Origin: Carcharhinus longimanus
Lineage: Eukaryota
Length of the DNA stretch: 64,000 nucleotides
NCBI GenBank assembly: GCA_030264375.1
Contig: JASCQW010000119.1
Span: 56,775,988 to 56,839,987 of the forward strand
Direction: 5' to 3'
The notes beneath the pieces are model-generated. The model saw nothing but the letters and a program-made list of their open reading frames with translations. It was not told where the DNA came from and made no database searches. Positions 1 to 49,872 of this stretch are shown one piece after another (the stretch's first letter is position 1; the number at the start of each line of letters is the position of its first letter). The translations under genes and the position numbers were made by a program.

Positions 1-380
1 GAAGAGGGAATCCCCTCGAAAGCTAGTGAATTTACTATCAAATAAATCGGTTGGACTAAAACCTGGTGTTGTCAGACCTTTTACTATGCTATCTGTAACC
101 CATACAACTTGCCTGGGTTTGCAAAATCTCACTAACTGTCCTGTCTGGAGACAATACGCATCTCTTTAACCTGTGCTTAACCCTCTGTCCAGTCACATTG
201 GATTACCTGTAAAGACTCGCAATCCAACCACATAAATTGAGTTTGTGTCTTCATATGTCCTACTTATGAACAGAACTCCCACCTACCTGACGAAGGGGCA
301 GTGCTCTGAAAGCTTATGGCTTTTGCTACCAAATAAACCTGTTGGACTTTAACCTGGTGTTGTGAGACTTCTTACTGTGT
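1..380 (+). mobile_element. Two tandem Penelope-like element 3' tails (pLTR) with minimal hammerhead motifs
   Basis: Repeated tail CAAATAAAyyNGTTGGACTwwAACCTGGTGTTGT at ~40-75 and ~330-365; CTGACGA...GAAAGCT at 287-314. Confidence 0.7.
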
Positions 381-1080
381 TGAGGGATCTCTCTGGGAGG
401 TGAAAAGAGCCAAATGAAATAATTACTTTTCTAAACTCCATCTCATCCCTTAATGAGTGTACACAGCTTCAATGAGAGAATTTTACCATGGGAATGAGCA
501 CAGCTTTTGTGTACCCTGTATGACAGTAATGGCAAACATTGTAAAACATAGATAAGAAGTATCTGATTTTATGCTGTTGTGGATATTGCAAAAGGGAGTA
601 TGGTGACATCAAGGCTGTAAATGTGATGTGACATGAGCTTGCAGCAACCAGTTTGAAGCAAGATTGTAACTATTGCACTTGCAAATGTTTCCAAGCCTAG
701 TGACATTTTTGGAAATTATGGCTGGCAATCGTGTGAGAAGTGTGATGTTGAATTGGCTGCTTGTCATACATCCTCTTGACTTTGCAATTGAGCGGTGTTT
801 ATAGCAGGTAACTGTTGCAATATTCTCTGCTTCACGACTGTATTGAAGTCATTGAAACTTCCAGTGAATGTTCTTCAACTTCTACCTTTTTCTGTGTGAC
901 GCTAATTCTGATAATTACATTGCTTGTTTGTATCTCTGCTTTCCTCCTTTTTATTCGGTTCTTTTTAATCAATGTCTGTTTTACTCAACTCTGCACCAAT
1001 TGCAAAAATGCACTTTTTGGGAGCAAAAATGTCAATTTTGACAATTGAAAGTTATTTAAATCTGCACTGACTCCTTGACA

Positions 1081-1365
1081 GAGCACCTTACCCAGGCCCT
1101 CTGCCCTGCCCTATCCCTGTAATCCCACATATCTCCCATGGCTAATCCATCTAACCTACACAGCTTGAGACACAAAGGGGCAATTTAGCATGGCCAATCC
1201 ACCTAATCGGCTCATCTTTGGACTGTGGGAGGAAACTGGAGTACCTGGAGGAAACCCACGCAGACACTAGAAGAACGTGCAAACTCAACAGTCACCCAAG
1301 ACGAGAATTGAACTCAGGTTTCTGGAGCTGTGAGGCAGCACTGCTAACCACACCACTGTACCACC
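1081..1365 (-). mobile_element. HE1-like (V-domain) tRNA-derived SINE
   Basis: Reverse complement of GTGGTTAGCA.TGCTGCCTCACAGC...GGGTTTCCTCC...TTTCCTCCCACAGTCCAAAGATG; many copies in the window. Confidence 0.85.
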
Positions 1366-2529
1366 TTCTCCAGGGCAATTAAGGATGGGTAATAAATGGT
1401 GGCCTAGCCTGTAATGCCTGCATCCTGTAAAATAATACATTAACAAAAATGCCAAAGTCTCATGGCCAGGACTCATTTATTTACAATGCCACAATCTGAC
1501 AAAATATCAGGGGAAAAAAAAGCTGTATATAGATTTGTTTCTTCTCGTTGAGGAAACGTGGATAATCTTTTGAAGGGTAATCAATTATTTCTTTAGCTGG
1601 ATCAAAGAACTAAAGTGCAAACTATGACTATGATTAACTCTCGAGGCCATTGTATCATGTCAGATTCCAACTGAACTGTTAAGGTGCATTTAAGATCCAC
1701 AGTGGTGCCACTTAATTATCGAAAAGATTAGAAATTAGAGTACAGGGATCAAATTGACTTAAATGGAGTGATTAAACTATCACCCTTCTGAAAAAAATCT
1801 ATATATAATGGGCCATTATTTCCTGTAGCCATGAGATAGATCTGTCCTTGCCCATTTAAATCTGACTATTTTCTGTGGTGTGTTGCTGGAAGTGAAAACT
1901 AAAAACAACTGAGGCAAATGGGGTGTCTGGGATCTGATCAAACAGGACAAGCAACTGTTTATCTTCGTCAATTAGAATGGAGGTTTGTGAGATAAACAGT
2001 CTGAATTGAGAAGAACATGTGAACTTGCCCATCAATTCAACGTCAAATCAGAAAGGGAAACAGATGGGGGGGAGGTAGTTGAAGACAGAAATGAGAAATA
2101 TTTTAAAATTTTACATTTGTAAGTACTCCAAACCTAATTCTGCACTTGTAATTGTTAAGTTTTGATGCTTAGGTTGATTGGCAGTAATTAACAATGAAAA
2201 CATTTATTAAAAGAATCTCTGACCAGTCAGTTGCTGCTTAACTCAACATGTACGGACCTCAAAAGACTCTGTAATAGGCTTCTTGGCTTTCTTTATTTTA
2301 AAGTGTGTTTTGAATGAGTTTAAAATCTTGCTTCATATATCACTTCAGACCAATATAACTTAGTGTGCAAAGTTTAGAATTTACTGTAAGTATACCAGTT
2401 TTGTGCTTCAGTGCCTTCCAATGGGGAGCCAGAGCAGGATGCTATTTTCAAAGCTAATGACCAGGTAGTCAACTTTTAGATTAGTGCTTTTTAATTGTGT
2501 CTGCCTCTGCAAGAAAGTACAGTAGCAAT

Positions 2530-3200
2530 AAATAAGTATAAAGAACAAAAATATGAAGGCATGCTCATCTTTATAATATGCTTTATAAAATATGAGCTGG
2601 AGTGTGGTGTTTAGTTCTGGCTATTATCCTTTTGGAAAGGTGTCAACTCCTTTGAGAAGATTTTATTAGGTTAATAACATTAGAAATGGGAGCTAGATAA
2701 TGTCATACAGTTTCCTGAGGAAGTATTACAATTCAGCAAGTTCAGGGATGATGTTTTGCACCAGCTCACATTGCTGCTCTATCCAATGACTTTTTGTTAC
2801 TAGGTATGAACAGATAGGTAGAAAAGCTGGCATTCTCCTTTCAACGGCAAAGGTTGTGAGAAGATTCAAGAAGAAGTGTTCAGTTTTGAAAGACTAAATA
2901 AGGAAAAACTGTCCCTAATGACAGATGGTTGATGACCAGATGAGACAGATTTAAGGAAATTTGTAAAAGAATCAAAGTTAGGCAAGGTTTATTCCATTGT
3001 GCTGTTATGACCTGATTTGTACTGTCTGAAGGGATGGCAGATGCAGATTGAATTGTGATGTTCAAAAGAGAATTGGATAAACACTTGAGGGGAAAACTTG
3101 AGGACTTTTGGGAAAGAGTAGAGGAACATGACTAACTGGATAGCTCTCTCAAAGAGCTGGCACAGAAGGCTAAATGGCTTCCCTGTGTGCCAAATCTATA
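2530..3200 (+). mobile_element. Degenerate CR1 LINE 3' fragment
   Basis: Decayed RT C-terminus (GAGCTGGAGTGTGGTGTTTAGTTCTGG) and CR1-type 3'UTR, similar to 31230-32190. Confidence 0.65.
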
Positions 3201-3602
3201 AATCCCTGTTGCTGAAATATCATTCTAAGTTAAGTATGCTTTTGAGCATAGCCTGATGTGCCTCTAGATTGCTTGTTCCTGTGGTGAAATGAGTAGCTTG
3301 GGATAAGCCTTGACGTTTGCGTTTCAGGCACCTGTTTGGTATAAAATGTACTACATTTTATTTTGCAGCCATGCACTGTTCATTGCTGCACATTTTATTT
3401 GGTATCAATAGCAGGATCATGCAACATGTTTGTTTGCAATCATCATGCAAGTTAAATTCCAAAAGATCACTATTTTGGTATTTAATGCCCTCCTTTCAGG
3501 TTGTGGTGAATAAACTCTAATTGGATATGACTACATTATTATATGATGCATTGTTATTACTGAGGAGAAACTAGTTTGATTTAAGTGCTCCCACATAAGT
3601 TA

Positions 3603-3898
3603 GGCTAAGATCAAGTGTAGTATTGATGTGCTGTGCTTTGTTGAAATCATTAGGTTACATCTTAGCTTCATTTGAAGCAATTTTTAAAAGTGGCATCTTG
3701 ACCTTTTGGGTAAGATGCAAATGAGATCAAACTTTGGAGGAGGAGTTATGCCTACTCCAAACAGCTTGGATTGTGTAGATCAAGCCCAGACAGGAGGTGA
3801 GAGCCCTATCTTGCCAGCTTGGATTGGGAATGCCTCAACTTGTTGAGACTCTGAATTGGACTTGATTTGATTGAATTGGAATAAAAAACAAAAAAAAA
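3603..3898 (+). repeat. U2 snRNA 5'-derived fragments and U2-headed repeat with A-rich tail
   Basis: 3603-3623 equals vertebrate U2 nt 19-39 (GGCTAAGATCAAGTGTAGTAT). 3693-3720 matches U2 nt 4-30 at 23/27 positions plus one insertion. Ends AATAAAAAACAAAAAAAAA. Confidence 0.75.
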
Positions 3899-4844
3899 GT
3901 TAGGCAATATGTGAACTCCTCTTCCAATGCCTATCAGAAAATCACTGCCATATATTCTTTAAAGCTTAGTGTAATCCAGTTGTGAAGGTCTGGTGCAGTA
4001 CCAAGGAGGATAGCTGATGTATGTAGGTGAGATGACATCCAAATAAGTATTTGTGTCACTGGAAGCACTCTGCAGGCCTTTGTCTAGGGAGAAACTGAAT
4101 TAACATTTCAGATTGAGCATTCATCAGAACTTTGTCACTCTTTTTTAGGTTGTGGACCTCAAACTCCCTTTTTAATTCTGTGATGCAAGATCTACTTTCC
4201 TTCCTTGAACTCTCCTCTTCCATCCATAAGTTGTACATCTGGAAAATGGTGTCACGAGCATGGAATTGGTTTTCAAACATGTGCCAGTAATACTGAGCTT
4301 TATATCTTTTTTTTCTGCTGTATCTTCCAGTTGCTGTCAGCATCATGTTTTGGATCTGCCAGCACTAAGACTAAAGCCATTATGTTCAGCCCATGCCAGA
4401 GACACCATATTGTAGGTCCTGATCTTGCCCCTTCCTTTCTATTGGACCAAATGGCATGCAATCTTGATGCTCAACTACTTCATCCTCGACTGTTCTTAAA
4501 GAACAGCACCTAGAATGAGAGTACCCGCTAGAGTGCAGAGGCTGTTCAGCCCATCAAGTCTGCACTGACTCTCCAGGAGCATCATACCTGACAGGAAAGG
4601 GAGGCATTAAAAAGTGATCTTGCATGACTTGTGCAAAAATAAACATGTATGATCCTGCTATTGACAGAAATAAAACATGTAGCTTCCAAAAGTCAAGAAC
4701 ACCACTTATGATCACAAATGTTATTTCTTCACTGGAGATTGGATTCCCACTATGCTGTGAGCCAACTGATATTTCAAAATCTTGCATGCTCAAACCTAAA
4801 TATATTCCCTATCAATCATTAAGTAGCAGCAAATATATATTAGC

Positions 4845-5200
4845 AACTTGCATTTACATAGCACCTTTTTTAATGTAGAAAGATACCCCAAGGTGCTTAA
4901 TGAGTATGTTTGTTAAAAATTTGCATTTATGTTGCTTTTCATGGCCACCACCCTTCACAAAGTGCTTAGCAATTAGCAATCTCTGTTACAATTTAGGAAA
5001 CTTGGTAGCTAATTGTCTTCTCTCTCATGTGGCTGACTTCAACATCCACCTGAGAGAGAGAAAGAATAACTTATCCAAAAGATGACATCTCTAGGCAGTG
5101 CTCCCTTTTTGTCCTGTCCTGGTGTGTCAGCTTAGATGATGTGGCCAAAATCACCATCTTCTGGCTAGAGTGCGATCAACAGAACCACAGCTATCATCTA
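4845..5200 (-). mobile_element. Deu-domain (SacSINE1/AmnSINE-like) SINE, degenerate
   Basis: Reverse complement of GCTGACAC...GGGAGCACTGC...ATGTCATCTTT with tail GCTATGTAAATGCAAGTTG. Confidence 0.55.
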
Positions 5201-5626
5201 AATTTGACACTGAGTCACACGAGATATCCAAAGGGATCACTAGAACACATATTGTACTGTGCACAATATAGAACAACTTGGACACAGCAGTTTAACATCT
5301 CATTAACCCTCTTCAAATCCAATATTGCTTAAGTTTAAAAAAAAAAGTCCAGGAAACAATCATGCCAGGAGAATTTTTTTCAGTCTGTTGTACGTGTTAT
5401 ATTTAATGCTGCTTGTGAATTACTTGTTTGAACAAGTTTTCAAAACCAAACATAGATTCTCTTGAGTGATAATTCCAATCAATAGTGATTAGATAAAGGT
5501 ACTATTTGACAAGTAATAGCATAAATTGTGTTTCTGTATCTTTTTTAAGATACAATGGCATGCTATTGAGAAACACTTTGAAATGGGTTGACATTCCAAA
5601 TGGTATCTATGATGCCTGCTGATATT

Positions 5627-5938
5627 CATAGAATCTCTACAGTACAGCAAAAGGCCATCTGGCCCATTGAGTCTGCACCAACTGCAATACTACCCAGGCC
5701 CTACTCGTATCCCTACACATTTACCTACTAATCCCACTAACCTACGCATCTCAGGAAACTAAGGGGCAATTTTAGCATAGCCAATCAACCTAACCGCACA
5801 TCTTTGGACTGTGGGAGGAAACCGGAGCACCCGAAGGAAACCCTCGCAGATACAAGGAGAATTGCAAACTGCACACAGTAACCCAAGCCAGGAATCGAAT
5901 CTAGGTCCCTGGCAACAATGCTAACCGCTGTGCCACCC
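5627..5938 (-). mobile_element. HE1-like SINE
   Basis: Near full-length reverse-complement copy of the element at 8141-8472. Confidence 0.85.
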
Positions 5939-6221
5939 TATTTTATAGTTGGGGTCCATAGACACCTGGGCATTTGTAGAGACTTTGCAGGGGATCGGCA
6001 ACATAATGTGAACTGCCCTTTTTTTTTTACTGTAGTGAAGGGGGTTGGGCATCCACCAATTCAATTGCTCAATGCCATATCCTTCTCAGTTTGCCACCCG
6101 CACTTTCTATACTCATGTTCTGTCTGTTCTTGATACTGTGATGTTGCTGCCAATTAGCTCTGGTTGAATCTATCCTGCGTTATTGGCCAGCACATGTTTC
6201 AAAACTCATCCTAAAACTCAC

Positions 6222-6451
6222 CAAAAGAGAAAATGCTGGGAAACCTCAGCAGATCTGGCAGCATCTTTGAGAGAAAAGAGCTGACGTTTCGAGTCCAGAT
6301 GACCCTTTGTCAAAGCTTTGACAAAGGGTCATCTGGACTTAAAACGTCAGCTCTTTTCTGCCCTTACAGATGCTGCTAGATCTGCTGAGATTTTCCAGTG
6401 GTTTCTCCTTTGATTTCAGATTCCAGCATCCGCAGTAATTTGCTTTTATCA
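6222..6451. mobile_element. Palindromic Penelope-derived element (loopless inverted repeat centred at 6315/6316)
   Basis: 44-bp inner arms with 2 mismatches, extending to about 95 bp per arm; tail CAGATGCTGC.AGA.CTGCTGAG...CAGCATCCGCAGT. Confidence 0.8.
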
Positions 6452-6889
6452 TTCCAATACTCTCTTGATTTGAAAACCTGTCTTGTTCGCCATTCTTATA
6501 ACCACTTAGCTTCAACCCAGCTTCTTATTTCTTTCCAAAATCATCTTTGAAAATTGATCCTTGCATTCCAGACTGAAAAATTAGTTGACTAGTGTTAGCT
6601 GTGGTAGGCTCCCACCCTGAATATCTAAAAGTTCTATCTCTTCCTCAAGTCATTTTCACCCAGCTTTCCCTTCCTTGAATTCTGATTTGGATGTATCCAT
6701 GAAGGAAAACGTGGTGTAAAAGTTTGTCTACTATGTAATGCCTTAGTATTCTCTGAAATTAATCAGTCTCGATCTCAAAAGTAGTGAATTAACTATTTGC
6801 ACAAATACATATGTAATGCTCAAAATTGTTTGCATATTGCAGCTAATGTGCTTTACTGGTCTCACGAGTATGAAAGTCACTGAAGTACC

Positions 6890-7080
6890 AGATGGCCATA
6901 GGTTGCTCTCCTTTTTGAGAGAGAGCTGACTGGTTGTCATATAACCTGAGGGTCACTAAACCTTAGTCGAGGGGCAAGGTTGAGGAGGCAGGGCCTTCAT
7001 GAATAACCTCAACTGGTATGGGAATAGAACCCACGTTGTTGGCATCACTGCATCATGAATCAGCCACCCAGTCAACTAAA
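6890..7080 (-). mobile_element. tRNA-headed SINE of a second family
   Basis: Minus strand reads TTAGTTGACTGGGTGGCTG...GTGGGTTCTATTCCC (A/B-box-like head). Confidence 0.5.
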
Positions 7081-7967
7081 TATAAATAACCTTTCCAAAT
7101 TGTTTTTTAGAATAGAAATGTACCGTTCTTAAATTTTGCAATTAACTGTCCTGCATCTTGTTTGCAAAAATAAATGCAATCAGTTTGTTCTATGTTTGCT
7201 TGCACCTGAAAACTAAAAGCAATTTCAGTATGTAATTTGACTTTTGGAGGAAGTACCCATTATGTGACCATTCCTAAGTTCTGGTTTAGTGATTAATGCA
7301 TAGACTGGCAATGTAGCCAAGCTGGAACGTGATTCGATACTTAAAATGTAACCAGGGAAGTATAAGAGGAACGTTTCTGCCCAAAATGAAACACAGACAT
7401 TGAAGATTAGCAAATTTTCTCAACCAGTAATCCTAAAACAGGGCAGTAACATCAAACATTGAGAAATGGAAACAAATAAATTTGCAGCTAAAGGGGAAAT
7501 ATTGTTTGTCCTTAACCTTGAATCACTGTTTTTCATCTGCTCTCCTGACTTTGAAAGATGTTTCTTGTATAGATCAGTTATCACCACCTTACAGTTTGTA
7601 ACCACCTCCACAGATGACCATAACCAGTTGTACCTTGAATTTCTCTTTCGATGGCCCTCTCTTTTATTTCTTTCCCCTTGGCTGGACATTTTTTTTTTGC
7701 TCCGCTCACTGAATAGACTCTGAATCATTTGTAGAGGATCTTTCCTGTGTACGTTTACGAAGAGGAAATTGTGGGCACTGAAATCCACATGATGAAAAAA
7801 AATTAGACTTTGTTACTACAGCTTAAAAAAGGAAACTGTATTGGAATGCAAAATGGAAACCAATAATTTGTTTTTATGGACACCTTCAATTTCGTTGTTC
7901 AGTTGTATATTTTATTTTGAATGCATATAAAATGGGTGAAGTCTGAACTCTTTGTATTTGCTTACAG

Positions 7968-32503
<24,536 letters not shown>

Positions 32504-48950: not shown

Positions 48951-49872
48951 TTTCTTCCTGTGCAAGAGATGCCTGGAATGTCATCCTCCTCTCTTGTCAG
49001 TCCTTCTGTATGCTTGTAATGCACACTTTATTTCTGTGCAAGATTCCTAATGACACTCATTCCTTTTGTCAGTCCTCCTGTATGCCTGTAATACACACTT
49101 TCTTCCTATGCAAGATTCCTAATGTCACCCTCCTCTCTTGTCAGTCCTTCTGTATGCCTCTAATACACTTTCTTTCTATGCGAGATGCCTAGTATGTCTT
49201 GTCACTTTCTTCTCATTCCTTCTGTATACCTGTAATGCACACTTTCTTCCAGTGCAAGATTCCTAATGCCACCCTTAACTCTTGTCCGTCTATATGCCTG
49301 TAATACATATTTTCTTCCTCCTGCAAGATTCCTAATGTCACCGTCTCCACTTGTCAGTCCGTCTAAGTTTTTTTCTACTGTGAAAATCCCCTAGTTGCTA
49401 CACTCCAGCGCCTGCTCAGGTATACTGAGGGAGAATTTAGCATGGCTGGTAGCACGTCTTTCAGTCTATGGGAGAAAACCCATGCAGACACAGGGAGAAT
49501 GTGCAAACTCCACAGAGGCAGTGACCCAAGCCAGAAATCGAATCTGCTATCCCTGGCACTGAGGCAGCAGTGCCAACTACTGTGCCACTGCAAATGCCTG
49601 TAATACATACATCCTTCTGCAAAATTACTATTGTCACCCCCTCCTCTTGTCAGTCCAGCTGTATGCCTGTATTACACACTTTTTCTATGCAAGATTCCTA
49701 ATATCACCCTCCCCTCTCTCCAGTATGCCTATAATGCACATTTCCTTCCTATGCAAGATAGCTAATGTCACTCCCCTCGTCAGTCCTCCTGTATGGCTGT
49801 AATACACACTTTCTTTATATGTGAGATTTCTAATGTCACCCTCTCTTATCAGTCTTCCTGTGATACACACAC
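48951..49872. repeat. ~70-bp minisatellite, about 10 diverged copies, interrupted by a minus-strand SINE (49367-49590)
   Basis: Unit TTTCTTCCTATGCAAGATTCCTAATGTCACCCTCCTCTCTTGTCAGTCCTTCTGTATGCCTGTAATACACAC. Confidence 0.92.

Follow-up and report, generated by a model that had tools for sequence, protein, structure and literature searches.

Positions 3603 to 3898 of a 64,000-nt stretch of DNA from the shark Carcharhinus longimanus, hereafter the window, hold a truncated copy of a dispersed, U2-headed SINE, the sources of which probably lay in U2 snRNA genes at nt 38/39, were probably transcribed from the U2 promoter and were probably copied by a Keno-like LINE of the same genome. A further-reaching version of this reading, to which we give even chances, is that a LINE-SINE pair inhabits the U2 arrays at a one-base site, with the U2 promoter and the first ~38 nt of U2 supplying the 5' end of the SINE, and with an evolved antisense strand and hairpins disarming the splicing sequence thus acquired.

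The preliminary description of this DNA had reported an exact 21-nt U2 fragment, a second, decayed U2 head, two modules and an AATAAA with poly(A), all of which we found in place. The 21-mer at 3603-3623 was identical to nt 19-39 of a U2 gene of the same genome (L031), and the 18-nt U2 core matched once in the window, compared to 0.07 matches expected. For the second head, the family majority sequence aligned to U2 nt 4-33 with a score of 45 (0/1000 shuffles), and the two modules gave a global alignment score of 16, compared to a shuffle maximum of 7 (n = 2000). That description did not mention two further features, namely that the copy is 5'-truncated, as we call it because full family copies begin at U2 nt 1, and that it is flanked by a 9-nt target duplication, AAGTTAGGC. 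No ORF of 120 aa overlapped the copy, which is built as follows, all parts being on the + strand:

3597-3605 (+): left target-site duplication, AAGTTAGGC, with an identical 9-mer at 3897-3905; the final 3 nt are shared with head 1, as U2 nt 19-21
3603-3623 (+): head 1, exact U2 snRNA nt 19-39, a shortened form of the family's U2 1-40 head; contains GUAGUA, the bases that pair with the branch point
3624-3654 (+): masking strand; the core (3631-3642) is predicted, for intact copies, to form pairs with U2 nt 25-36, and the strand has decayed in the window copy
3665-3678 (+): small hairpin, then a T-rich stretch (fold prediction)
3693-3723 (+): head 2, U2 nt 4-33 remodelled to a longer closed hairpin, without GUAGUA
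3725-3772 (+): module 1 hairpin (alignment and fold)
3778-3825 (+): module 2 hairpin, with the outer stem of module 1 and an inner stem that differs in sequence; predicted fold alike
3826-3879 (+): 3' tail specific to the family, with short repeats of the GA(A/C)TTG type, unlike the LINE 3' end
3880-3898 (+): AATAAA (at 3880) fused to the A-rich tail, with the A-tract running until 3898
3897-3905 (+): right target-site duplication, AAGTTAGGC again

A search of the 2.68-Gb genome returned 2,362 candidates, and all 40 that were scored spanned ~300 nt, the 39 besides the window copy being 89-91% identical to it. An internal 27-mer, allowing at most 2 mismatches, had 2,889 matches in the genome and none for the reversed control, a figure that is a lower bound because many copies contain assembly gaps. 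A single-copy sequence or a chance match could thus be rejected on the 2,889 matches and the ~300-nt span, and the retroposon family proposed earlier proved to be real, being multi-copy with a U2 head in other copies. The family is ~313 nt long, A-tailed and non-coding. Full copies open at U2 +1 with U2 nt 1-40 (head 1) and carry U2 nt 4-33 as head 2 (0/1000 shuffles for each), and the start lay within the first 15 nt in 14 of the 19 position-sampled copies in which both ends were readable. A plain U2 pseudogene or gene was ruled out, the U2 match stopping at nt 40 and lacking stem II, the Sm site and the 3' stems. Recognition of U2 by Rfam, another point raised earlier, was borne out for one full-length copy (E 8e-8; 44.2 bits, slightly below the cut-off of 46), in which U1 or U4 pieces were absent from the scan, and failed for the truncated copy, for which a scan of window positions 1-12000 reported no U2.

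Target duplications, which the preliminary description had proposed looking for, were more frequent among copies than among controls: those scoring at least 9 (9-17 nt) flanked 11 of 67 copies, compared to 2 of 600 mismatched flank pairs, the sample comprising 67 of 89 loci after removal of 6 duplicate loci and of loci gapped at their ends. The other 56 of 67 copies had no target duplication at this threshold, and no common motif was seen by eye in the flanks of dispersed copies. Some SINEU-2 insertions are likewise reported without duplications in the available part of PMC4494074.

The 54 full copies fell into subfamily A (n = 47) and subfamily B (n = 7), with a fixed junction, as befits a family descended from master copies and not a set of chimeras formed independently. 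Subfamily A copies were on average 94.9% identical to their own majority sequence in this set, which is biased to top hits, and 90-95% in 7 position-sampled copies; the window copy stands at 92.9%. Subfamily B, at 90.3% to its majority, is older, and its head ends at U2 nt 37. In five copies (L178, L234, L136, L145, and L094), some of which have variant tails, the start lies at head 2 (nt ~108-120), possibly because truncation has a hot spot there or because these copies form a short subfamily. In a sequencing-run index, 8 rows from 5 studies contained 0.20-0.40 of the SINE words, four of them with distinct coded organisms, and a further 16 rows held small shares; no RNA run was among the listed holders.

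Both subfamilies were predicted to fold well, with whole-element z scores of -4.5 (A) and -4.9 (B), and -3.9 for one full copy; the window copy folded no better than its shuffles (z -1.4) and did not form the masking pairing. In the predicted structure, SINE nt 47-58 pair with U2 nt 25-36. The mean pairing probability of U2 nt 25-38 was 0.96 in subfamily A (0/300 body shuffles) and 0.86 in B (3/300), and of 40 copies whose head is intact, 38 had a masking probability above 0.5. Within the masking helix, A and B differ at 2 positions, with pairing retained at both. When all 23 differences between A and B were placed on the structure predicted from subfamily A, 15 were unpaired, 3 kept pairing and 5 broke a pair, compared to a null mean of 9.9 breaks (83/5000). 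In head 2, the changes lengthen the hairpin and GUAGUA is missing. The masking strand is predicted to hide the U2 bases that pair with introns, which would spare splicing from disturbance and suggests selection on the parasite RNA against interference with splicing.

A strong fold kept in both subfamilies would also be expected if the copies were retropseudogenes of a U2-derived functional host small RNA or polymerase III transcript, and the 9-mer at the start of each module does conform to a loose B-box pattern. This match, however, is one duplicated loose 9-mer, while four runs of T4+ precede nt 125 and an A-box match was not found. Furthermore, the two subfamilies, the tandem arrays and the residence inside U2 genes described below fit a parasite, and no separate gene locus was seen. 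We consider such a host RNA very unlikely, and treat the family as a SINE in what follows.

The preliminary description had suggested that the element could be the partner of a U2-targeting element, and the same genome indeed has a U2-targeting LINE that is tightly associated with the SINE. A search for zf-RVT found one dominant LINE family (145 matches), the copies of which are ~5 kb long, with an ORF1 carrying ZCCHC3-type RBDs and an ORF2 carrying APE-like, RT and zf-RVT domains; the APE-like domain, in a decayed copy, reached E 3.5e-4 against PF03372, which falls short of the curated cut-off. We take this LINE to be Tx1-type from its ORF and domain layout and its tail, and judged by its insertion site it is Keno-like. 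In 7 of 30 ORF1 loci the sequence extends to the start of the LINE 5' UTR, which part or all of U2 1-35 precedes. Many sampled LINE tails are 98-100% alike, so a young LINE subfamily exists. A protein search with ORF1 gave a single hit, labelled Mustelus asterias and 65% identical, and a search with a C-terminal fragment among longer proteins gave no match. In one shark PRDM7-like protein record (P0001), LINE ORF1 domains are fused to SET/KRAB-type domains, which reflects either the capture of an ORF1 or an artefact of the gene model. The possibility that the SINE is a deleted form of the LINE found no support: when SINE nt 41-303 were aligned to an entire LINE copy, 170 of 200 shuffles did as well.

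The two elements meet at one site. Ten junctions between poly(A) and U2 from nt 39 onward were found, five after the SINE, four after the LINE tail (L126, L128, L130, and L134; a further LINE-tail junction is in L275) and one after a short tail that by eye resembles a SINE variant; L103 is an additional SINE joined to U2 nt 39, making 6 SINE loci. Near-intact empty U2 sites numbered only 29. Keno and Utopia are both reported to be flanked on their 3' side by U2 nt 39 (PMC4640811, available part). The SINE and the LINE are also neighbors elsewhere, a same-strand SINE following the LINE poly(A) within ~25 nt at 3 of the 30 tails sampled by position and at 4 of 30 zf-RVT loci, and a SINE following the LINE in 3 of 5 long LINE copies with a readable 3' end; by simple arithmetic, the chance of a SINE after a LINE tail is ~6e-5 per locus even at 10,000 copies. 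In one locus (L203), a SINE/LINE array consists of five elements arranged head to tail. In three others (L202, L222, and L225) the spacer resembles the SINE 3' flank and therefore fits repeated use of one site. Against the association, when examined from the SINE side, a LINE tail lay just upstream at 0 of 89 SINE loci (some duplicates). A degenerate U2-derived sequence, covering about nt 5-170, lies between two LINE-type tails in L224 (G000:C1:100002378-100005403) and may be a sister U2-derived family.

The 3' ends of the two elements do not match. A comparison of the SINE tail with LINE 3' ends had been put forward in the preliminary description, and it gave no significant similarity (417/1000 shuffles equally good); the SINE and the LINE 5' UTR showed a weak, post hoc likeness (22-32/1000; first 100 nt, 311/1000). 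Without a common tail, the SINE might be mobilized by some other LINE (CR1/L2, another Tx1 family or Utopia), with the Keno-like LINE merely inserting beside U2-like heads; the insertion order in the tandem pairs is unreadable and the LINE survey was one of the Keno-like family. A LINE sharing the SINE tail was not found, as 29 of 29 other loci from a tail search were SINE copies, many of them gapped upstream. Against another LINE, 6 loci have the SINE A-tail directly next to U2 nt 39, and the enzyme of the SINE therefore has nt 39 specificity; in addition, the tail type and the duplication lengths of the SINE resemble those of the Keno-like LINE. Mobilization by another LINE thus seems to us very unlikely, and the Keno-like LINE is the preferred partner.

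U2 upstream DNA in the assembly is of three kinds. For two of these (4 and 2 hits), only unrelated pseudogenes or intact genes were recovered. The third, which comes from an array with short spacers, had 8 hits, of which 7 reached U2 +1 and none went on as intact U2. At these 7 sites we found a full subfamily-A SINE three times, a LINE 5' end twice (one being the query), U2 1-39 plus LINE tails once and U2 1-37 plus poly(A) once. We infer a putative working promoter in the third kind of flank, which has a 20-nt element in common with another U2 upstream region and for whose U2 variant retrocopies exist. The three SINE copies at +1 lie on separate contigs with 130-210 nt of flank, and in two of them an 8-nt duplication surrounds flank plus SINE (controls of at least 8 nt, 37/2000); they therefore resemble retroposed read-through RNAs of SINE-bearing U2 units. 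Such flank-bearing copies point to transcripts that began farther upstream and read through, instead of starting at +1. In L276 and L280, the carried U2 upstream flank begins at almost the same position, possibly a processing site or a cryptic start. A SINE with the U2 promoter before it and the rest of U2 after it was not seen.

Of 6 units in which the SINE is followed by U2 from nt 39 onward, 3 finish with a second A-tail after U2 nt ~113-147, compared to 2 of 27 U2 copies that are empty (Fisher p 0.03), and one unit includes the whole U2 3' extension. Many U2 retrocopies (L035-L045 and L247-L273) end near nt 57-65, in a search pattern that leaves out 3' ends before nt 58, or ~40 nt beyond the mature 3' end without an A-tail, and from the latter it follows that precursor U2 RNA has been retroposed in this genome. 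Use of the 3' ends of empty retrocopies to distinguish insertion from template switching was abandoned, the pattern itself admitting no ends before nt 58; a rough first count of 106,159 U2 candidates was likewise kept out of the analysis. In L214 and L032, U2 genes lie in a ~1-kb tandem unit with an interspersed second sequence, which we take to resemble U5 snRNA.

As to where the head comes from, the main competing explanation is an apparent second route, template jumping onto U2 RNA. In the model that Kojima set out for SINEU (PMC4494074, available part), the head arises by a template switch onto U2 RNA, transcription starts from any upstream promoter, and U2-gene insertions would be a by-product of a Keno-like enzyme. 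Apparent template jumping has added U2 fragments before four SINE copies (L003, L022, L254, and L263), and many 3'-truncated U2 retrocopies exist in the genome, in favor of this model. Against it, every head stops close to the nt 38/39 site, at U2 nt 35-40. In addition, three SINE copies begin at +1 directly after U2 upstream DNA, and most copies open within the first 15 nt. We therefore regard an origin of the family by template switching as unlikely, and favor insertion into U2 genes.

According to the favored scheme, insertion at nt 38/39 of a U2 gene would place U2 nt 1-38 before the element, so that RNA from the U2 promoter would begin with a U2 head, and SINE sources would in this way borrow the U2 promoter for their transcription. 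Priming on the SINE A-tract, the LINE reverse transcriptase would then insert most copies at unrelated sites, in which, left without a promoter, they would decay; the window copy would be one of these. Both the transcription of the SINE and the role of the LINE as its partner are, we infer, as this scheme has them. Since the SINE is found at U2 +1, joined to nt 39 and with the LINE beside it, promoter borrowing is directly testable.

SINEU-1, -2 and -3 are reported from crocodilians only in the papers searched, and their transcription is called open because the U1/U2 promoters lie outside the transcribed part (PMC4494074, available part). Compared by published description and not by body sequence, the shark family has the structural features of SINEU: a U2-derived head, a second internal U2 piece, a length below 500 nt, a poly(A) tail, internal T runs, no LINE-shared tail, tandem insertions, snRNA fragments added 5' and a probable Tx1 partner that is itself U2-headed. 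It differs in its host, a shark instead of crocodilians, and in its target, with U2 nt 38/39 preferred instead of Mariner-N4_AMi. It further differs in copies that carry U2 upstream or downstream DNA, unreported in the available part of PMC4494074, and in its predicted masking strand and twin hairpins, and it lacks a U1 piece. The finding would widen snRNA-headed SINEs from crocodilians to cartilaginous fishes. U2-promoter borrowing, if true, would answer how SINEU-type elements get transcribed, and a LINE-SINE pair of the U2 array, if true, would mean that snRNA-headed SINEs arose a second time, independently, and would point to a general way in which such elements are born and come to be transcribed.

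The partner LINE resembles Keno, as described in the available parts of PMC4494074 and PMC4640811, in its putative APE-like domain and its U2 nt 39 flank. Unlike Keno, it is mostly dispersed (676 tail matches in the genome; U2 nt 39 after 0 of 30 sampled tails), and its target specificity is therefore relaxed compared to Keno. Utopia (PMC4640811, available part) uses the same U2 site and has weakened specificity in reptiles; it has a single ORF and a C-terminal restriction-like endonuclease, in contrast to the two ORFs of the partner LINE, with a putative APE-like domain at the N-terminus and zf-RVT in the C-terminal part. We found no U2-headed SINE of cartilaginous fishes in the literature searched, Repbase and Dfam lying beyond this comparison, nor in the available parts of PMC5499810, PMC5786205, PMC5381603, and PMC10468316.

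A promoter-less element transcribed along with a multicopy host gene recalls R2, with the differences that the host gene here is a polymerase II snRNA gene and that most copies are outside it. R2 elements have non-autonomous partners in 28S rDNA. Co-transcription of R2 with its 28S rDNA host is cited in the available part of PMC4494074.

Elsewhere in the window, positions 6235-6399 form a long, near-perfect inverted repeat with Rfam microRNA matches under the cut-off; the sequence also occurs in L112, L134, L186 and others and is therefore likely a common shark repeat. Tandem arrays lie at 19193-19405 (41-nt units) and 48951-49843 (~70-nt units). Adjoining the 41-nt array, an open frame at 18728-19090 (+) has a PHD-finger-like Cys/His pattern and is possibly a DNA-transposon remnant.
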